A stretch of 21,434 nucleotides of DNA from a virus (IMGVR_UViG_2695420514_000017:1-21434), one strand, 5' to 3'; numbered from the stretch's first letter, positions 1-9,385 are shown. Notes: a model not told the origin generated them from the letters alone. A program made the numbers and translations.

Positions 1-1944
1 ATGAGTAACGGAAATATTAAATATCGACCAGAGATTGACGGACTACGATCAATTGCAGTGTTATCAGTAATATTATTCCATGCAGGGATAACACAATTTT
101 CTGGCGGATTTATTGGCGTTGATGTTTTCTTTGTAATAAGTGGTTATCTTATAACCACTATACTTGTAAATGAGCAAGAAAAAGGATTCATAAGCATTTC
201 TAATTTTTACAGGAGAAGGGCCAAAAGAATAATTCCTGCACTTTTCTTGGTGATTGCGGTAACCACTCCAGCAGCGTATTTATATTTAGCACCAAAAGAA
301 CTTTCCTCATATATTTCTAGTATTTTATATACAGCCACATTCTCATCAAATTTTCTTTTTTGGCAGGAGTCTGGGTATTGGGATACTGCAACAGCGCTAA
401 AACCACTTATTCATACATGGAGTCTTGCGGTAGAAGAGCAATTTTATCTTATATTCCCATTCATTGTAATGATGTTTTGGAGATTCGGCGCAATACTGTT
501 TTCTTTGTTTCTTGCTATTCTTATGGCTGGTAGCCTCTGGCTTTCTCAAAACTCACTGCTTGATAACCCAATGTTTTCTTTCTACATGCTTCCTGCTAGA
601 GCATGGGAGCTATTTGCTGGTTCAATTATAGCTGTGCTGCTAAAGCGGAGTAACATATACAACAGTTCAGGAATATTCAACCAAGTGGCATCAATTGCTG
701 GTCTTTTGCTGATCGTGTTCCCTGTTTTTTATTATACAGGAAAAACAAAATTTCCAGGTATTTCAGCGATACCGCCAGTTCTTGGTGCGGGTCTAATTAT
801 AATCACATCAAACTCAAATACCATAGTTGGGCGCATTTTAGGATCCAAGCCTTTTGTTGCGGTTGGTCTAATAAGTTATAGCGCGTATTTATGGCATCAG
901 CCAGTACTTGCATTTCTAAAGATAATAACTTTAGGACGGATGGATGTTGTTGATTCTCTTTTAGCTGTTGGATTGATACTTATACTATCAACCATTACTT
1001 ATCATTTAGTTGAAAAGCCAGTGAGATTTGGTCATACATTTTTTGGCAAGTGGCCACTTTTAACTACAGGAATAGCCTCATGCTTAATCATCGTTGCCTC
1101 TTTTACAGCATCTAAAGGTAATGGATTCCCAGATAGAATCAACTCTGTATATAGCGCGAAAGCTCAGGCAGTTGAATTAAAGAATACTCAATCATTTGTT
1201 TCAGATACGGAACCAGGTGAAAATAAACCGATCATTCTCATCATTGGTGACTCCTACGTCAGAAACTGGTCTATAGGGCTAAGAGAAAAAATCAACACAT
1301 CTAAATACCGAGTTGTATCTTTGACTTATCGTGGATGTGATGTCGATGTAAAATCAGATTCAGTTTTTGCAAAGCCTATTGAAAGCGCCTATAAAGAAAA
1401 CTGCAAATACTTAACAGATATGTTGAACAATAAAAATATAACTTCTCATATTGATAAGGTATTCCTTACATCTCACAGGCCATTTGCATATATTGCAAAC
1501 AATTTCAGATTCAATCTATTGAAGTATATTTCTTCGCACTCAAATTCAAAACTATATATATTTGGAAATTATTTTCAATATCACCCTATGAAAACGCAGA
1601 CATGCCTAAGCTCTATGTTTATTGCAAAGAGAGATGCAAGAGTTTGCATAGATAGTTCAGAGTACAGTGGTAATGAAGGTAAGATCACCGATAAATTAGG
1701 ATTATATCGCCCAATGGACACCTTAGGTTTACCCTATACGTATATAGATATTAAAAGCATGATTTGTGATAAAAAATCTAAATCGTGCCCATATGAGTAC
1801 AATGGGGTTCCATTTATGATTGATACAAACCATTTAACTGCTACGTTCGCCAAATTCCTTATTAGAACTATCACAGATAAGAATGCCAGATACTTTTCAA
1901 AAATTGGTCTCTCAGATGTTTTTTCATTTGATAAACCTAATTGA
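1..1944 (+). CDS. O-antigen/LPS O-acetyltransferase: acyltransferase-3 (AT3) membrane domain fused to a C-terminal SGNH-type domain (OafA/Oac-like lysogenic-conversion protein)
   Basis: 647 aa ORF. N-terminus has the RPEIDGLRSIAV...FHAG motif typical of AT3 acyltransferases, followed by many hydrophobic segments over roughly the first 370 aa. The C-terminal soluble part carries GDSY (IILIIGDSYVRNW) and a D-x-x-H motif (MIDTNHL) as in SGNH hydrolases. Markedly AT-rich relative to the structural genes. ATG at window position 1, so the start cannot be confirmed against upstream sequence. Confidence 0.85.
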   Translation: MSNGNIKYRPEIDGLRSIAVLSVILFHAGITQFSGGFIGVDVFFVISGYLITTILVNEQEKGFISISNFYRRRAKRIIPALFLVIAVTTPAAYLYLAPKELSSYISSILYTATFSSNFLFWQESGYWDTATALKPLIHTWSLAVEEQFYLIFPFIVMMFWRFGAILFSLFLAILMAGSLWLSQNSLLDNPMFSFYMLPARAWELFAGSIIAVLLKRSNIYNSSGIFNQVASIAGLLLIVFPVFYYTGKTKFPGISAIPPVLGAGLIIITSNSNTIVGRILGSKPFVAVGLISYSAYLWHQPVLAFLKIITLGRMDVVDSLLAVGLILILSTITYHLVEKPVRFGHTFFGKWPLLTTGIASCLIIVASFTASKGNGFPDRINSVYSAKAQAVELKNTQSFVSDTEPGENKPIILIIGDSYVRNWSIGLREKINTSKYRVVSLTYRGCDVDVKSDSVFAKPIESAYKENCKYLTDMLNNKNITSHIDKVFLTSHRPFAYIANNFRFNLLKYISSHSNSKLYIFGNYFQYHPMKTQTCLSSMFIAKRDARVCIDSSEYSGNEGKITDKLGLYRPMDTLGLPYTYIDIKSMICDKKSKSCPYEYNGVPFMIDTNHLTATFAKFLIRTITDKNARYFSKIGLSDVFSFDKPN

Positions 1945-4341: not shown

Positions 4342-5220
4342 TCAGTAGTTATGTACTGAAGGAGGTAATTCTTTATTCTTAAGTCTCATCCATGCGGAAA
4401 GATTCGTTGGTCCGTCTGGCTCATTGATATCAACATCTCGTGTGTGATTGATTAAAACGTCCCTCGCCATTCCGATAACATACGAGAACTCATGACCGTA
4501 GTCGTAGCATCTGCCGGAATAGTTCGATTGAATTTGTTTTAATGCCGGATACAGTTCGCGGAATAATGCCTGTGAGCGATTGGCATAATCCCATAACCAT
4601 ACAAGGCTGTTTGCTTCTTTTGCAGAAAGCTCGTTGACTTTCCTCTCTTGTTTGCCGATAAACTCGCCTTCAAGCACTACCCTGTGGATGTACTCTACGG
4701 CCAGCGGGATTTGTTCAATTGAAAGTTCATCAATGCTGTCAATACCAAAACGCTGATGAACCATATTGTATGCATCGTCATAGCGAAGTCCTTTCTTTCC
4801 TACCAGCATGTTTACTGCATCGCGTAGCGGTGTTCTTTCCTCAACAGTGGTTTTCTTGCCTTTCACATACTCTCCATGTTTGCGAATCGAAGGCAGAACT
4901 TCTGCTGTTACCCACTTGCGGAATTTGTGCGGGACTGAACCTTTATTGACAGCATCGCGGCAGCGCAGAACCAATGTATACATACCTGATTCGCTAACAA
5001 TGCTTAGATTCTGCTCACCACCAAGGGTGTAACTTAAAGTTACTCCCTTTTCATCGTCATCAAGTGCAGTAAGCGCCTTGCGTGAGTTAGTCAAAGATAA
5101 AGCATCACAAACATCTTTAGCTACAAACCACGGCTCACCGCACTTGTTGATGACGCGGATTTCACTGTCGCCGAATTTGAAGATGGTGAAATCGTTTTGT
5201 GCCTTTGCTATACTTTTCAT
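4342..5220 (-). CDS. ant: Antirepressor Ant (Bro-N domain protein)
   Basis: 292 aa. N-terminal Bro-N-like motif ([28 protein letters not shown]...RLDDDEKG...[17 protein letters not shown]) resembles P22 Ant as recalled. Position directly downstream of arc matches immI. Confidence 0.85.
5186..5214 (+). promoter_or_regulatory. Candidate Psar: extended -10 promoter inside the 5' end of ant, reading antisense
   Basis: TGcTATACT at 5206-5214 fits the extended -10 pattern (TGnTATAAT). Weak -35-like GTGAAA at 5186-5191 with a 17 bp spacer. Predicted start near 5221-5223, just past the ant start codon on the opposite strand. Confidence 0.4.
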
Positions 5221-5292
5221 GTCAATATTTCCTAATCCGATTTGTTGATAACGAAGCCCTGACTGTTACCGCAGTTGGGGCTTCAACTTTTT
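5221..5292 (+). ncRNA. sar: Candidate sar-like antisense RNA complementary to the ant ribosome-binding region
   Basis: Plus-strand hairpin at 5253-5284 (GAAGCCC...GGGCTTC outer stem with an inner GACTG/CAGTT extension) followed by aac-TTTTT (5288-5292) is an intrinsic terminator on the strand opposite arc-ant. With the extended -10 at 5206-5214 this predicts a roughly 70 nt RNA covering the complement of the ant RBS and start codon, as described for P22 sar (68-69 nt). Confidence 0.45.
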
Positions 5293-5456
5293 GCTAGATT
5301 ACCTTTAGAACTATCCCGCCTTAAACTATCCACCAACCGCATTACCATCTCGGTATTTATTGAGCGGCCATTTTCTTTCGCTGACTTCTCGATTGCTAAC
5401 TTAACCTCTAATGGGATGCGCAAAGGGTACTTTGGTGCGTCTGACTTGACTATCAT
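5283..5456 (-). CDS. arc: Arc repressor (ribbon-helix-helix)
   Basis: 57 aa from the ATG at 5454-5456 with a GGAGG RBS 4 nt upstream on the minus strand. PKYPLRIPLEVKLAIEKSAKENGRSINTEMVMRLV aligns with P22 Arc (FNLRWPREVLDLVRKVAEENGRSVNSEIYQRV) as recalled. The ORF-track start at 5471 is a TTG extension. Confidence 0.85.
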   Translation of the reverse strand: MIVKSDAPKYPLRIPLEVKLAIEKSAKENGRSINTEMVMRLVDSLRRDSSKGNLAKS

Positions 5457-5474
5457 ATTACCTCCAATCAATTT

Positions 5475-5491
5475 GGTATAACCGTTATACC
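5475..5491. promoter_or_regulatory. Perfect 17 bp palindrome; candidate Mnt-type operator over the Pant -10 and start site
   Basis: GGTATAAC-C-GTTATACC is a perfect 8-1-8 inverted repeat. It overlaps the predicted Pant -10 (5484-5489) and transcription start. P22 Omnt is likewise a 17 bp near-symmetric site overlapping the Pant start, from memory. Confidence 0.55.
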
Positions 5492-5512
5492 ATTGTGATC
5501 GCAGTGATGCAA
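5484..5512 (-). promoter_or_regulatory. Candidate Pant (promoter of the arc-ant operon)
   Basis: On the minus strand, TTGCAT (plus 5507-5512), 17 bp spacer, TATAAC (plus 5484-5489). Correctly placed upstream of the arc RBS. Confidence 0.5.
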
Positions 5513-5521
5513 TAGTAATAT
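5493..5521 (+). promoter_or_regulatory. Candidate Pmnt (divergent promoter for mnt)
   Basis: TTGTGA (5493-5498), 17 bp spacer, TAATAT (5516-5521), about 24 bp upstream of the mnt ATG. Its -35 abuts the Pant -35, giving back-to-back divergent promoters as in P22 immI. The region between them (about 5491-5516) is the expected place for an Arc operator, but I could not define one confidently. Confidence 0.4.
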
Positions 5522-5544
5522 CACCAAAATGCTATGGAGGTGGT

Positions 5545-5781
5545 ATGTCACGCGAAGAGCCGCAAATAAATATCAGGATTTCCAAAGAGTTAAAGGCAAA
5601 GGTTAAAGCCAGGGCGCAACATAACAAGCGTTCCATGAATGCTGAAATAATACAGATTATCGAAGATGCTGTTTGTGGTAGATCGCTTAATAGCAATGAA
5701 TTTGCTCAGAAAGAGGCTGACAAATTCAGGGATGCGCTGCTTGAAACACTGAAAACCATGTATGGTAAGGATGCAAAATGA
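5545..5781 (+). CDS. mnt: Mnt repressor (ribbon-helix-helix maintenance repressor)
   Basis: 78 aa. INIRISKELKAKVKARAQHNKRSMNAEIIQIIEDAV aligns with P22 Mnt (FNFRMPMEVREKLKFRAEANGRSMNSELLQIVQDAL) as recalled. GGAGG RBS 4 nt before the ATG. Divergent from arc. Confidence 0.85.
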   Translation: MSREEPQINIRISKELKAKVKARAQHNKRSMNAEIIQIIEDAVCGRSLNSNEFAQKEADKFRDALLETLKTMYGKDAK

Positions 5782-5987
5782 ATAAAAAACAGTTTATTAA
5801 GTCAAAAACGTCAAGCAAGGAAGAGCTAGAGAAAGAGCTAAACTCCCTGAAATACGCTCTGTGTCTGGTTTACTCAAGACTGCCAATGGAAGATAAAAAC
5901 GCTATTTACAATGAAATGATTAGCAGCCTTGATTTTAACGATAGAGACCTTGCATCCCACCTCAACAGCTTCCGCGTCCCTGAGTAA
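5778..5987 (+). CDS. Hypothetical 69 aa protein translationally coupled to mnt
   Basis: The ATG at 5778-5780 overlaps the mnt stop (ATGA). Hydrophilic, predicted helical (KEELEKELNSLKYAL). No family recognised. Confidence 0.55.
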   Translation: MNKKQFIKSKTSSKEELEKELNSLKYALCLVYSRLPMEDKNAIYNEMISSLDFNDRDLASHLNSFRVPE

Positions 5988-6147
5988 TTCTGTTGCGGAT
6001 TTGCTTCTTGCGGTGGTTTAGGCTGGAGAGCTTGGCTTCTGCTTCCGATATTTGCGCATCTAGATCTTTAAGCTCAAGATCTGAAAGTCGCTGGTCAAGC
6101 AGGGTTTGGTTTAACTCAATGTTGTTCAGGCGTTCTTCTATGGTCAT
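5962..6147 (-). CDS. Hypothetical small coiled-coil protein (61 aa from the second ATG)
   Basis: MTIEERLNNIELNQTLLDQRLSDLELKDLDAQISEAEAKL shows heptad-like periodicity. AGGA lies about 8 nt upstream of the ATG at 6145-6147 on the minus strand. Convergent with, and overlapping by 26 bp, the 3' end of the preceding plus ORF, so it is uncertain. Confidence 0.4.
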   Translation of the reverse strand: MTIEERLNNIELNQTLLDQRLSDLELKDLDAQISEAEAKLSSLNHRKKQIRNRITQGRGSC

Positions 6148-6178
6148 AACTTTCATCCTATAACTATTTGGAATCAAA

Positions 6179-6361
6179 ATGAAAAATATATTAATTGGTT
6201 TCGTTTTTGGTGCAGCCTGCGCCGCCAGCATTAGCGTCATCGCCGCCCAGGTTGTTGGTGGTAACTCATATCTAATGGGCTATGACGTCATGATAAATGG
6301 AGAGGTTGTTTGCTCAGATCCTTATGTATGGACCTCGACAAAAGAAATAGAATGTGACTAA
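6179..6361 (+). CDS. Hypothetical small membrane-anchored or secreted peptide (60 aa) with two Cys in the C-terminal part
   Basis: Hydrophobic N-terminus [26 protein letters not shown] (signal peptide or single TM helix), then a 35 aa tail with two Cys (…[20 protein letters not shown]). Weak RBS (GGAA) but a clear intrinsic terminator immediately after the stop. Confidence 0.5.
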
Positions 6362-6363
6362 TA

Positions 6364-6389
6364 CCAGCCTGATGGCTGGTTAATTTTTT
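6364..6389 (+). terminator. Rho-independent terminator after the 60 aa peptide gene
   Basis: CCAGCC-tgat-GGCTGG hairpin (6364-6379) followed by TTAATTTTTT (6380-6389), 3 bp after the stop codon. Confidence 0.6.
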
Positions 6390-6406
6390 CATTTACCTGG
6401 GCCATA

Positions 6407-6437
6407 TTGACTACTTATAAAATGAGATCAATATTTA
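6407..6437 (+). promoter_or_regulatory. Possible promoter for the YjzC-like gene
   Basis: TTGACT at 6407-6412, with an AT-rich -10-like ATATTT/TATTTA about 18-19 bp downstream (6431-6437). The -10 assignment is weak. Confidence 0.3.
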
Positions 6438-6471
6438 ATCGCCCAATAACGGGTGTATGTTGAGGTATATC

Positions 6472-6651
6472 ATGGCGAAAAAACCAGGTGAAAACACAGG
6501 AAAAAACGGCGGAATATACCAAGAAGTTGGCCCGCGCGGCGGTAAGAAAGACAATTTTGCCACCGTCAAGGACAACGAAAGGCTTCCGCCAACAACAAAG
6601 CCAGGTCATGGCTGGGTATTAGATAAGCGAACTCCAGACAGCAAAAAGTAA
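6472..6651 (+). CDS. YjzC-like small protein (59 aa)
   Basis: MAKKPGENTGKNGGIYQEVGPRGGKKDNFATVKDNERLPPTTKPGHGWV follows the KPG...G.Y.E.G..G......V.....LP.T...G.W pattern I associate with the YjzC-like family. GAGG RBS 6 nt before the ATG at 6472. An upstream in-frame ATG at 6457 has a poorer RBS. Confidence 0.65.
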   Translation: MAKKPGENTGKNGGIYQEVGPRGGKKDNFATVKDNERLPPTTKPGHGWVLDKRTPDSKK

Positions 6652-6657
6652 TAATCA

Positions 6658-6680
6658 AGCCGGGTCACTCCGGCTTTTTG
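6658..6680 (+). terminator. Rho-independent terminator after the YjzC-like gene
   Basis: AGCCGG-gtcact-CCGGCT hairpin (6658-6675) followed by TTTT-G (6676-6680), 7 bp after the stop. The stop codon of the convergent minus-strand HExxH ORF lies inside the hairpin. Confidence 0.65.
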
Positions 6681-7030
6681 ATATGTCGCTCGCAGAACTC
6701 AACAAGCCTGCTCATTAAGTAGCAGTAAGTCTCGTTGGCTCTTCCTGGTTCAACATCAACACCGACCCTTGAGCAGATATCGAATGCCATGTGAGCGCAC
6801 TCATGGGCAATAGTAGATAGTTTGCCATTGAACACACCTATCACATGCAAAACACCATTCTCGCTGCTCATTGTATGAGACGCTCCGTTGGCATCCGAGT
6901 CCTGCACGTCCACGCCAAGTTTTTGATGCAGGCGTTGCCATTCTGGAAAGTCTCTGCAAAACACAATCGTACCGCTCTCAAAGAGCGGTACGAGCATCTT
7001 TGGTACGTTTCCAATGTTAACTTTTTTCAT
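6665..7030 (-). CDS. Hypothetical 121 aa protein with an HExxH motif (possible small zinc metallopeptidase-like or Zn-binding protein)
   Basis: From the ATG at 7028-7030 (AGGA 4 nt upstream on the minus strand): MKKVNIGNVPK...STIAHECAHMAFDICSRVGVDVEPGRANETYCYLMSRLVEF. HECAH with a downstream Glu and nearby Cys suggests metal binding. Sequence looks protein-like, unlike the overlapping N-terminal extension of the plus ORF. The ORF-track start at 7069 is a TTG. Confidence 0.5.
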   Translation of the reverse strand: MKKVNIGNVPKMLVPLFESGTIVFCRDFPEWQRLHQKLGVDVQDSDANGASHTMSSENGVLHVIGVFNGKLSTIAHECAHMAFDICSRVGVDVEPGRANETYCYLMSRLVEFCERHIKKPE

Positions 7031-7060
7031 GGTATCCTGCTCAAAACTAAGGAGGTTGGT

Positions 7061-7450
7061 GTGAAGCAATTTCTTGCTGCTATGTTCTTATTCATATCTT
7101 TTGGGGCTACAGCAGAGTGCTGGGTCGTTGGAGATATGCGCGGAATAAGCTATTCAGAACGCAATAATTTCCATCCGGTAGAAGATGGTTTTAGTGGAAC
7201 ATTCACCATTAAGACAAGCGGTGAAGATGCCAGCATCACATATTCTGGTACAGATGCGGGCGGCATGGCTTACAAAGCATTGTCTAAAAACTCCATCATA
7301 GGAATCGGCGCGAATGGCGAAACTCAACGCGTTATCGACTCATGGGTAATACATCCTACTGGAACAGTTTTAATGTCAAAAACCATTTCCGGTTATGGAA
7401 ATATGGATTCAACCAAAGCTTTTGTTGGAAAAGTAAAAAGAAAATGTTAG
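7061..7450 (+). CDS. Hypothetical secreted (periplasmic) protein, about 129 aa precursor, predicted Sec signal peptide
   Basis: Strong AAGGAGG RBS (7049-7055) 5 nt before an in-frame GTG at 7061. N-terminus MKQFLAAMFLFISFGATA|ECWVV has an n/h/c signal-peptide layout with an A-x-A cleavage site. Mature part is beta-rich (TFTIKTSGEDASITYSGTDAGG...) with Cys at both ends. The 72-codon upstream extension in the ORF track is antisense to the HExxH ORF and not credible. Confidence 0.6.
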   Translation: MKQFLAAMFLFISFGATAECWVVGDMRGISYSERNNFHPVEDGFSGTFTIKTSGEDASITYSGTDAGGMAYKALSKNSIIGIGANGETQRVIDSWVIHPTGTVLMSKTISGYGNMDSTKAFVGKVKRKC

Positions 7451-7474
7451 CGATTGAATCCAATTTCCCATACG

Positions 7475-9385
7475 TTACTGCTGTGTTGCCTCAGTAGCAA
7501 ACAGCGGCCTGACGGCATTTGCAGCGTTACTTAACGCTCTTTCATAGGCTGGTGTTCCAGCTTTAGTGTTTGCCAGACGTAAGAGCGCATTCCTTGCTGC
7601 TTTGGACTCGTACAAGCGCATGATTGCACCGAAACCAGCCTCAAGTCCCAGTGATACACCAAGGGTTGCAGTTGCGCCAATCGTTCTAATCCTGTTAGCT
7701 TGCGATTGTCCTGTCTGTGTTACTACATTTGCGGCGTCCGACCTTGCTGTTTGCTGTAGAACTTCATGAAGAGCATCAAGCTCTTTCATGTGTCTCCCAC
7801 TGAATATAGTGTTATAGATCTGACCGTCAGATTGCGACTTCAACTTATTTAACTCGGTAAGAAATTTTGTTGGCGAGTCTCCTGCTTTTTCTGCAATCTT
7901 GCTGATATAAGCAGCACGCATAGCGTTCTTTCCATCTTCACTAAGAGCAGGCCATATCCTCTTAATATCTGATGGTTTTCTGCTGAATACAACGCTGTTT
8001 ATTAGCTCTGGAGTAAACTCTTTTTTAGCTTTGTTGAGATTATTCGCAATCCTTTTATTGAGAACTTTATTGAAGACGTTGGAGTAGTCAGAGTTTGCTT
8101 TGACGTATCTGGCGGCCTCTCCAGCCCCCAAATACCGCGCTGCGTTATTCCTCAAATCTGCCCCCATTGCCCTCTCCACGGCATCAGTTGCGGCTTTCGC
8201 GCTATTAGGAAAAACCATGGCATCTCCCTGAATACTTTCCCTCAAGGCTGACCGCAACTCTCTCAATAGACCAAAATCTATATCTGGTTTAGCAAGTTCT
8301 TCTCGCAAATCGGATAACCCGCGAATCAAATCCTTATTTGCCACTTTCCCAAGCCTGTTAGCTCTGGTAAGTACGTTGTCGATAACCTTAATAGATTTTG
8401 ATGTGTCAACAGGTGTGTCTCCCATTTTGGTTGTAATGTCTTCAATAACGCTTCCGGCCGAATCCTTCCTTGACTTCAGAGAACCATACAGATCGTCAAC
8501 AACAACTGATGGGCTATATTCACCATATTTCTCAAGCTGTTTTTTAACTAGCTGACTTCTTTTTGCATATTGCTCAGCTCGCTTTGAGCCTGTTCCCAGC
8601 AAAGCCCCCTCAGCATCCTGAGTAAGACCACGAGTGAAAGCATTTTTCGGCGGGATTACATCAGATGTCATTGGTGTCACGCCCATCGATTCTGATGTGG
8701 CAATTTTCTTCGCCACTTCTGGTGCAATATCACCTTTAAAGGCAGTTATTCCACGCTCAAGCCCTTTTGCAACAGTATTAACAGCACCACCTGTTAGCAT
8801 GCCAACACCTATATCTGTTGCCAGTTTTCCCGCATCATTTTTCTCACTGTTTGCGGCGAGCGATCCGACTGCGTTTTCTGCCAGAAGACGGGCTGCGCCT
8901 TGAGTAATTCGACCAGCAAGTGTTGGCGCCTGAGTTGAAGCGCCGCCAACGCCAACAGTAGCCAGGTAAGGCAATGCCTCCGCAAACACCCTACCTTCTG
9001 TCGTTTGTGGAGTCAGAGCACCTTGCTGAAGTCCAAACGCCTGCTCTAATCCCTGAGTTGTTACTCGTGGCGCTGGTTGATATGTTCCATCGCCAATACC
9101 GAGTTTACCGCCAGCCCATGCCGCCGCGCTTGTTACAGCATCGGCAACTGATGCTGGTATATTTGCCACATTTACACCAGCCTGCACCAGTCCGCGACCA
9201 GTTTCTTTTACTGCTTCGCCGAGGTCAGACATAAATCCATCTTGCTGTTCTACAGGCTGCTTTTGGTTTTGAGTTGGTTGATTACTGGAGGACAGAATCT
9301 GAGCGATGCGACGTGCTCCCTCAGTATCACCAGCAGCATCAGCATTCCTTAACGCCGTCATCAATTGTTCACGACTATAAGCCAT
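7475..9385 (-). CDS. Ejection (E) protein, P22 gp16 homolog
   Basis: 636 aa. Position, size and N-terminus ([29 protein letters not shown]) are consistent with P22 gp16. Its ATG overlaps the gp20 stop (TAATG). Confidence 0.9.
   Translation of the reverse strand: MAYSREQLMTALRNADAAGDTEGARRIAQILSSSNQPTQNQKQPVEQQDGFMSDLGEAVKETGRGLVQAGVNVANIPASVADAVTSAAAWAGGKLGIGDGTYQPAPRVTTQGLEQAFGLQQGALTPQTTEGRVFAEALPYLATVGVGGASTQAPTLAGRITQGAARLLAENAVGSLAANSEKNDAGKLATDIGVGMLTGGAVNTVAKGLERGITAFKGDIAPEVAKKIATSESMGVTPMTSDVIPPKNAFTRGLTQDAEGALLGTGSKRAEQYAKRSQLVKKQLEKYGEYSPSVVVDDLYGSLKSRKDSAGSVIEDITTKMGDTPVDTSKSIKVIDNVLTRANRLGKVANKDLIRGLSDLREELAKPDIDFGLLRELRSALRESIQGDAMVFPNSAKAATDAVERAMGADLRNNAARYLGAGEAARYVKANSDYSNVFNKVLNKRIANNLNKAKKEFTPELINSVVFSRKPSDIKRIWPALSEDGKNAMRAAYISKIAEKAGDSPTKFLTELNKLKSQSDGQIYNTIFSGRHMKELDALHEVLQQTARSDAANVVTQTGQSQANRIRTIGATATLGVSLGLEAGFGAIMRLYESKAARNALLRLANTKAGTPAYERALSNAANAVRPLFATEATQQ

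Follow-up and report, generated by a model that had tools for sequence, protein, structure and literature searches.

A Hex-family gene in the sieA slot of a P22-like ant moron: a candidate periplasmic exclusion protein in an apparent mosaic of accessory modules

In P22-like phages the interval from gene 16 to gene 9 was described as the 'ant moron' with the genome of epsilon34 (Villafane, Casjens et al. 2008; PMC2629481); its content in P22 was given as sieA, hkcC and 59a, the latter two of unknown function, and late transcription was stated to read through it into gene 9. The mechanism of SieA is partly established, the target being the gp16/gp20 conduit, and sieA was present in 22 of 66 sequenced P22-like phages (bioRxiv 10.1101/2023.08.15.553423). 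Hex of phage 434 takes its name from 'heterologous exclusion': lambda-imm434 lysogens of Salmonella exclude P22, an ability that is lost in hex mutants (work of Susskind and Botstein, cited in PMC3564112). In this study the interval 5778-7474, from mnt to gene 16, was analysed in a viral sequence of 21,434 nucleotides (nt) (IMGVR_UViG_2695420514_000017:1-21434, hereafter 'the window', positions being counted from its first base), which derives from a P22-like (Lederbergvirus-type) phage or prophage. The interval carries six small open reading frames (ORFs), named O1 to O6 (Table 1). O6 belongs to the family of Hex, stands where P22 has sieA and was considered as a candidate exclusion protein. 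The points that appear to be new, as read from the sequences, are the exact swap of sieA for a Hex-family gene at the start codon, the export signals of the Hex family, and an HExxH...E protein family (O5) together with the O4-O5 cassette; they refine a known hotspot and do not constitute a new kind of system.

The swap was delimited by comparison with P22 and Escherichia coli ETEC1747. Window positions 7001-7063, which comprise the 30-nt spacer, AAGGAGG and the GTG start codon, differed from P22 by a single base; from the O5 start codon through this GTG, one base differed among the window (O6), P22 (sieA) and ETEC1747 (a gene for a transmembrane/coiled-coil protein of 109 amino acids (aa)), and the coding sequences diverged from codon 2 on. 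In the P22 RefSeq record the opening 31 nt of the O5 ORF, corresponding to window 7000-7030, bear the annotation 'sieA promoter'. Because the stretch is the same and the annotated P22 promoter lies within it, O6 was taken to inherit the expression signals of sieA, and would be expressed from the promoter stretch, leader, Shine-Dalgarno sequence and GTG of the P22 gene. O6 therefore agrees with P22 sieA in position, in orientation (convergent with gene 16), and in promoter stretch, Shine-Dalgarno sequence and start codon, whereas SieA is a 164-aa multi-pass inner-membrane protein and O6 a predicted soluble exported barrel, with no sequence similarity between the two. P22 SieA gave no tblastn match in any O6-bearing locus, and O6 lacks the FnRYPnEAnnFNK motif of SieA types A-C. 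Presence and absence were scored in two matrices with 133 loci in total, 53 of them gp16-anchored or annotated records (searched by local tblastn) and 80 O6-anchored loci from IMG/VR; in these 133 loci sieA and O6 were never seen together. The other occupants of the slot are likewise predicted envelope proteins (SieA, a multi-transmembrane 109-aa protein, a transmembrane-coiled-coil protein and the secreted Kapi1_059), and the commonest alternative to SieA was the Hex-family exported protein, present in 77 IMG/VR contigs and using the signals of sieA. A linkage of O6 to one type of gp16 was considered and discarded, as the gp16 homologues that accompany O6 range from 37 to 100% identity. A longer reading of O6 as a 201-aa ORF (6845-7450) was also rejected, since the homologues are all 129 aa long and the Shine-Dalgarno sequence and the GTG at 7061 are conserved.

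The sequence-only reading had found no nameable function in the interval, which is wrong for O6. O6 and 434 Hex fall into the same PHROG family, phrog_2651 (expectation value (E) 3.3e-60 and 1.4e-58), and were aligned end to end by BLASTP (27% identity, E 2e-12; 129 versus 134 aa). When O6 was searched by tblastn against 50,697 phage records (2.3 Gb), near-identical copies and, beyond these, full-length matches of 27-28% identity were obtained to the 434 'repressor protection protein', Sf6 gp38, HK446 and HK633 (E 1e-5 to 6e-5; the Hex match itself, E 4e-5), followed by Chlobot, Huey and Sf101 (E 2e-4 to 4e-4); most of these diverged relatives adjoin a cI-type repressor gene, on its downstream side. 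In an alignment that included Hex, C20, W21 and C129 of O6 were invariant, the context of signal-peptide cleavage (slash) was ATA/ECW (..A.A/ECW) in O6 and ..ANS/ECW in Hex, and a C-terminal ..FVG..C was common to both. 434 Hex (locus L054, 2001-2405) and Sf6 gp38 (locus L055, 2001-2405) were seen to carry a typical Sec signal peptide, MIRIAALLSILLTTSANS, with predicted cleavage before ECW, and a terminal Cys. Hex and O6 thus have in common the prophage-expressed strand, phrog_2651, the signal peptide with ECW and the C-terminal Cys; they differ in location, hex following cI within the PRM operon of lambdoid immC regions and O6 occupying the sieA slot beside gene 16, between late genes. The Hex-type position downstream of cI was seen in 434, Sf6 and loci L139 and L140 (the latter two with a 434-like cI), and was not found for O6 in the window, where the gene sits between O5 and gene 16. 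In one contig (locus L116, 4299-4940) a 213-aa cI/LexA-like repressor with helix-turn-helix and S24 peptidase domains replaces mnt directly upstream of O6; this order, seen in some P22-like contigs, mirrors 434 cI-hex within the ant moron. In locus L138 no gene other than a homologue of O6 with 31% identity was called between tailspike and gp16 among ORFs of 50 aa or longer. The diverged family members are thereby placed where prophage expression is expected.

The structure model of O6 was all-beta, with an eight-stranded barrel behind a single low-confidence, hydrophobic N-terminal helix; the signal peptide was judged from the sequence and from this helix, which has a low predicted local distance difference test score (pLDDT), and not by a dedicated predictor. 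O6 would thus be exported by Sec to form a periplasmic eight-stranded beta-barrel, probably closed by a Cys20-Cys129 disulfide. A narrow O6 profile compared with solved structures returned no relatives.

The Hex homology, the exact exchange in the sieA slot and the envelope proteins found in the same slot elsewhere together argue for an exclusion role of O6, and the earlier expectation of exclusion-type cargo at this site held good for a Hex-family gene that adjoins gene 16 and is exchanged exactly for sieA. We regard the chances as evenly balanced that O6 is a prophage-expressed periplasmic exclusion protein directed against P22-like phages. It would exclude from the periplasm, at or just after formation of the conduit by the ejection proteins gp7, gp20 and gp16, and would serve as an alternative to the inner-membrane protein SieA. 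The barrel of Hex and O6 could intercept the ejection proteins or the nascent trans-periplasmic conduit, and could be swapped with SieA at a fixed 'plug-in' site from which promoter, Shine-Dalgarno sequence and start codon are provided. More tentatively, Hex and O6 would form a second, periplasmic class of exclusion proteins, accompanied in the window by an antagonistic mobile O4-O5 cassette. If this holds, the RecA-related activity published for 434 Hex in the cytoplasm would be of secondary importance or artefactual; the comparison provides a concrete hypothesis for periplasmic exclusion and a reason to re-examine how 434 Hex works.

Several points weigh against this overall interpretation of O6 and the interval. 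Identity of O6 to Hex is only 27%. Homology of O6 between contexts starts only about 35 nt upstream of the gene, with no conserved promoter of its own; a consensus scan of 6676-7061 gave no strong promoter, and the promoter assignments have annotation and consensus as their basis. O1, O2, O3 and O4 yielded no functional lead. The sole biochemical paper on Hex (PMC3564112) assigns it a cytoplasmic role in which it blocks RecA-stimulated cleavage of repressor. By analogy, O6 would be a cytoplasmic protein that protects the prophage repressor from RecA-stimulated autocleavage and stabilises lysogeny. Consistent with this, deletion of hex led to about 30-fold more spontaneous induction in recA+ cells and a Hex fragment protected the repressors of 434 and P22 from cleavage in vitro (PMC3564112), and O6 directly follows the cI-like S24 repressor gene in locus L116. 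The biochemistry was, however, performed on a 6-kDa fragment, full-length Hex being lethal when overexpressed; O6 and Hex both have a Sec signal peptide and a pair of N- and C-terminal Cys typical of the periplasm, the model is an all-beta barrel, and O6 in the window adjoins an ejection-protein gene and not an immC repressor gene. As the signal peptide is found in Hex and Sf6 gp38 too, the published action of Hex in the cytoplasm fits poorly with an exported beta-barrel, and repressor protection by O6 was considered improbable. An equally small likelihood was assigned to O6 (and O3) being periplasmic factors of host fitness or immunity, such as inhibitors of lysozyme or of type VI amidase effectors, and hence lysogenic-conversion cargo with no part in phage exclusion: neither Pfam nor NCBIfam linked O6 to MliC/PliC, Rap1a or another immunity family, its expression signals are shared with sieA, and Hex, the only relative with an experimental phenotype, is tagged with phage exclusion.

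For the interval as a whole, the sequence-only reading had seen six ORFs at the position used by P22 for sieA, with the architecture of moron cargo, as the likeliest place for an undescribed system. All six ORFs were recovered at the coordinates given there, covering 1489 of the 1697 bases, and each matched a PHROG family of unknown function (E 1e-31 to 1e-60). Ratios of non-synonymous to synonymous substitution rates (dN/dS; Nei-Gojobori count against every diverged DNA copy collected) were about 0.04 for O1, 0.04-0.27 for O2, 0.06-0.18 for O3, at most 0.14 for O4, 0.03-0.12 for O5 and about 0.13-0.4 for O6, the highest of the six; these low values indicate that all six are protein-coding genes under purifying selection, and the length of O3, O5 and O6 was kept in homologues down to 27-55% identity. 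The claim that the interval is AT-richer than the late genes is true but modest in extent (G+C content 43.3%, compared with 47.2% in gp16 and 50.1% in the remaining late genes). None of the six proteins scored above threshold in Pfam and NCBIfam scans. The PADLOC-DB v2 defence models gave no match for O1, O3, O4, O5 and O6, and for O2 returned only coiled-coil noise (PbeC and JetC, E 1e-3 to 4e-3).

Distribution among genomes showed that the island contains at least three independently assorting modules. No phage record or E. coli genome covered at least 80% of 5200-7600 in one piece by megablast. With the island as query, part of it was found in 420 of 5426 complete E. coli genomes, at least 80% in 8 and the whole in 4. 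Kapi1 has the stretch from ant through O3 and lacks O4-O6; ST-35 has the stretch from O4 to gp16; in Emek, O1, O2 and O6 are present and another insert (orf161 and a DUF4065 protein) separates O2 from O6. In Emek (locus L003, 1924-2797) orf161 and the DUF4065 gene, the latter with a SocA/Panacea-type antitoxin domain, may be a toxin-antitoxin pair and alternative cargo. O6 was the sole island ORF in 60 of the 80 O6-anchored IMG/VR loci, gp16 being detected in 56 of those 60, while O4 and O5 always occurred together in both matrices. P22 itself has O4 (orf59a, 98%) and O5 (100% at the aa level) between mnt and sieA, the O5 ORF being unannotated in the P22 records examined; in HK620, O5 is hkcC (100%) and O4 is HkcD. 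Because P22 has O4 and O5 in the interval, only O6 replaces sieA, and the comparison of the island with the sieA position stands for O6 and fails for the other ORFs. Relative to the ant moron of other P22-like phages, the window has the same region with O4 (98%), O5 (100%) and terminator tORF59A, and differs in the addition of O1-O3 (as in Kapi1 and Emek) and in having O6 in place of sieA or hkcB.

The interval is thus rather likely to be the sieA-proximal half of the ant moron, built as a recombinational mosaic of independently assorting accessory modules; this gene combination is rare, each part is common, and the hotspot as such was known before. The interpretation as moron-like accessory cargo at a site of variable content was borne out, and the cassettes are separable in the presence/absence comparison. 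A single co-functioning defence or anti-defence system would be consistent with a contiguous, compact arrangement that is AT-richer than the late genes and lies in a known cargo hotspot, and all six ORFs do occur in the same order in a handful of E. coli prophages and in an IMG/VR contig (locus L089). It is contradicted by the independent assortment of the modules, with O6 so often alone, O4-O5 beside sieA in P22 and, unaccompanied by the other four, in tail clusters of siphoviruses, O1-O3 without O4-O6 in Kapi1, and the whole set in so few genomes; the genes also lie on both strands with different predicted timing, and no PADLOC model matches any of them. One system of six genes was therefore judged highly improbable, and the region had already been published as the ant moron.

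Within this mosaic, O4 and O5 were followed as a unit. O4 matched phrog_3202 (E 7e-31) and is 98% identical to P22 ORF59a. Against Pfam YjzC (PF14168) it scored 19.4 bits and three diverged homologues 17.1-18.6 bits, below the cut-off of 25, with model positions 8-54 of 55 aligned; tblastn matched proteins annotated as YjzC in phages of Gram-positive hosts, among them a Clostridium phage (E 4e-4). O4 therefore resembles YjzC-like proteins in the near-full-model alignment; the YjzC-like gene of the Clostridium phage is likewise inserted antisense among late (head) genes. Homologues of O5 with 57-63% identity occur in Klebsiella, Rosenbergiella and a metagenomic siphovirus, between and co-oriented with tail-assembly and tape-measure genes, and 13-14 nt after each of the siphovirus O5 copies lies a convergent 59-aa homologue of O4 (76-81%). 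Since the arrangement, the O4 promoter and the bidirectional hairpin are kept in the siphoviruses, O4-O5 was interpreted as a mobile two-gene cassette. The hairpin at 6657-6676 is retained there with sequence changes; in the promoter, the copies from P22, Klebsiella, Rosenbergiella and the metagenome all keep the -35 element TTGA and the -10 element AATATTT, and the spacer varies.

In every copy O5 had the orientation of the late genes, and O4 was opposed to them with its own promoter. An antagonism would fit this layout, with O4 as a small prophage protein that is neutralised or processed by a late mini-metalloprotease O5, or with the roles exchanged, in the manner of a toxin-antitoxin pair or of a defence gene with its self-immunity, switched by the state of lysis or lysogeny. 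In its favour, pairing is strict in all 29 loci of the close subfamily, and convergence, the 13-14-nt gap, the bidirectional terminator and the O4 promoter are kept across podovirus and siphovirus contexts. Obligatory pairing across the O5 family was, however, rejected: distant homologues of O5 (35-40%; g341c gene 66 near the lysis genes, mEp554 and phCDa) have no O4-like neighbour, and the YjzC-like gene of the Clostridium phage has no HExxH partner. As these relatives stand alone, pairing is a trait of the cassette and not of the O5 family, and it may reflect recent common descent of one cassette. Antagonism between O4 and O5 was accordingly regarded as unlikely.

O5 was examined as a protein family in its own right. 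A profile search of 1.8 billion representatives gave 526 clusters (E at most 1e-3), nearly all of stand-alone proteins of 110-130 aa. In an alignment of 107 sequences (22-73% identity) only H76, E77, H80 and E100 were invariant; the cysteines of O5 are conserved in the close subfamily and not family-wide. The putative third-ligand Glu lies 20 residues past the second His, a gluzincin signature. This is the spacing of thermolysin. The AlphaFold2 model (pLDDT 88.6) showed a beta-beta-alpha-beta-beta order with an HExxH helix and a second helix beginning at N99-E100-T101. O5 had no Pfam family match, two members of the family touching SprT-like at 1e-4; a narrow O5 profile found no relatives among solved structures, and a broad profile gave weak matches in the PDB (E 0.05-1.6), of which 13 of 14 were zinc metallopeptidases, with thermolysin aligned over HExxH...E166. 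Structure comparison returned no significant fold match, and the zincin assignment consequently rests on motif and topology. O5 resembles thermolysin-like gluzincins and SprT-like minimal zincins in HExxH plus Glu and in the predicted sheet-helix-helix topology, and differs from gluzincins in lacking their Pfam membership and accessory domains at a size of about 120 aa. It was classified as a minimal HExxH...E protein and a putative small zinc peptidase of lytic growth. Its relatives share the orientation of the late operons that contain them, in siphoviruses, in P22-like phages (close to the lysis genes), in mEp phages and in a Schitoviridae phage; a large unnamed family, with 526 cluster representatives, is thereby flagged in late operons of phages of several morphotypes.

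The transcription layout was derived from gene order, promoter annotation and hairpin predictions. On the minus strand the late genes gp7, gp20 and gp16 (the former two, called by Pfam P22_gp7 and Inj_translocase, lying upstream of gp16) are followed by arc, ant and a tailspike gene with the P22 head-binding domain; gp16 is the last late gene ahead of the island and its right border. mnt is divergent from arc, with an operator inverted repeat at 5462-5504 between them. As the first gene of a transcript in prophage direction, mnt would be followed by O1 and probably also by O3: Pmnt would drive mnt, O1 and then, by read-through, O3. No terminator lies between mnt, O1 and O3, and the first one, after O3, is predicted to close an mnt-O1-(antisense O2)-O3 transcript. 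In a prophage O4 would be transcribed from its own conserved promoter to its own terminator. The plus-strand genes O1, O3, O4 and O6 are candidates for expression in the prophage, in the same orientation as P22 mnt, orf59a and sieA. On the minus strand O5 and O2 would be made by late-operon read-through from gene 16 toward arc, ant and tailspike. For O2 and O5 no separate promoter could be recognised; because of the late strand and the relatives of O5 in the Schitoviridae phage phCDa (members of this family being taken by us to be lytic N4-like phages), both were assigned to the lytic cycle as accessory genes and not to prophage-expressed cargo. The sequences show that the genes are real, which homologues they have, where the modules end and which signals are shared; expression timing, like export, the exclusion phenotype and catalytic activity, is inferred here. 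When each gene was tested for a promoter and a terminator of its own, O4 alone qualified, with terminators on both sides, whereas O1 and O3 rely on Pmnt and O6 on the sieA promoter stretch; of the self-contained cassettes seen by the sequence-only reading, only O4 is a true promoter-gene-terminator cassette.

Three terminators had been proposed to flank the cassettes. The two at 6363-6380 and 6657-6676 were confirmed as hairpins with a T-run; the third, at 5253-5292, is the 3' hairpin of sar and belongs to the regulation of ant. The only RNA family detected in the interval was sar. The hairpin at 6967-6993 (free energy of folding (dG) -23.6 kcal/mol, z-score (z) -5.07; none of 200 shuffles folded equally well) is identical in P22, with weaker hairpins and UUUUCUG at the same codons in the siphovirus homologues, and may be an internal attenuator of late read-through toward tailspike. 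A repeat search found only two notable elements, the operator palindrome of arc and mnt and, where O6 meets gp16, a long-range inverted repeat. The latter consists of 19-nt arms (7394-7412/7454-7472) with 84% complementarity and a 41-nt loop, reaches from the 3' end of O6 into the spacer before the gp16 stop codon, and is not followed by a T-run on either strand.

Table 1. Coordinates of genes and signals in and around the interval (positions in the window)
Feature	Position	Strand	Remarks
sar antisense RNA of ant leader	5222-5288	+	Rfam RF00262, 69.4 bits, E 1.4e-13
mnt-type Arc/ribbon-helix-helix repressor	5545-5781	+	Pfam Arc domain, E 6.8e-13
O1	5778-5987	+	69 aa; ATG overlaps mnt stop (ATGA)
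O2	5962-6147	-	61 aa; coiled coil
O3	6179-6361	+	60 aa
Predicted intrinsic terminator after O3	6363-6390	+	7-bp GC-rich stem and T-run; dG -12.9, z -4.0
Predicted sigma-70-type O4 promoter	6407-6435	+	TTGACT, 17-nt spacer, AATATT (consensus scan)
O4	6472-6651	+	59 aa; Gly/Lys-rich
Bidirectional terminator between convergent O4 and O5	6657-6676	both	'tORF59A' in HK620, 'mnt terminator' in P22
O5	6665-7030	-	121 aa; HECAH
Hairpin inside O5 codons 13-21	6967-6993	-	perfect 12-bp stem, U-rich tail
Gene-16-side slot signals	7000-7060	+	P22-annotated sieA promoter 7000-7030, leader, AAGGAGG 7047-7053
O6	7061-7450	+	129 aa; GTG start behind AAGGAGG
P22 gp16-type DNA ejection protein	7475-9385	-	RefSeq 'P22-gp16 family' label on 99%-identical copies

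The remaining three ORFs were characterised by family searches and by their contexts. O1 matched phrog_16466 (E 4.6e-51), with six synonymous and one non-synonymous change, and is predicted to be a cytoplasmic helical protein that is translationally coupled to mnt. Other prophages fill the mnt-coupled slot differently, the gene there encoding a Rap1a/Tai immunity protein (Pfam, 9.7e-15), a ClpP-like protein, a relative of Kapi1_059 (secreted, 105 aa), or an O3 homologue or membrane peptide. In E. coli ETEC1747 (locus L141, 1793-2128 and 2219-2533) an mnt-coupled Rap1a/Tai type VI immunity gene is followed by a copy of O6 that lacks the signal peptide (starting MRGISYSE...) and is probably a decayed duplicate.

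The 3' end of O2 overlaps that of O1 by 26 nt. O2 matched phrog_7586 (E 1.3e-43) with residues 32-92 of a 92-aa ORF aligned, and in 12 genomic contexts the homology starts exactly at the ATG at 6147, each with its own Shine-Dalgarno sequence and several with a terminator ahead of it. Since homology begins at this ATG, the 92-aa call was treated as an over-extension, the hydrophobic N-terminal extension of which lies outside the conserved gene. The 'XhlA family' label (PF10779) given to O2 by the Prokaryotic Genome Annotation Pipeline (PGAP) was not adopted, the Pfam score being 12.3 bits against a cut-off of 34.7.

O3 belongs to phrog_37095 and has a hydrophobic, variable N-terminus and an invariant 13-residue C-terminal motif with two Cys; its homologues (50-75% identity) are all 60-61 aa long, with dN/dS 0.06 against the Citrobacter copy. 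It is predicted to be an exported or membrane-anchored Cys-pair peptide, and the authors of the Kapi1 annotation placed a signal peptide at residues 1-22. In Citrobacter P22-like prophages O3 is joined to mnt in an operon by an ATGA overlap, which argues that O3 is made in the lysogen.

Outside the interval, just past the tailspike gene and on the opposite strand, window 1-1944 (+) encodes a 647-aa fusion of an AT3 acyltransferase and an SGNH domain (Pfam, E 1.3e-30 and 1.5e-19), which looks like a lysogenic-conversion gene of the O-antigen acetylase type.

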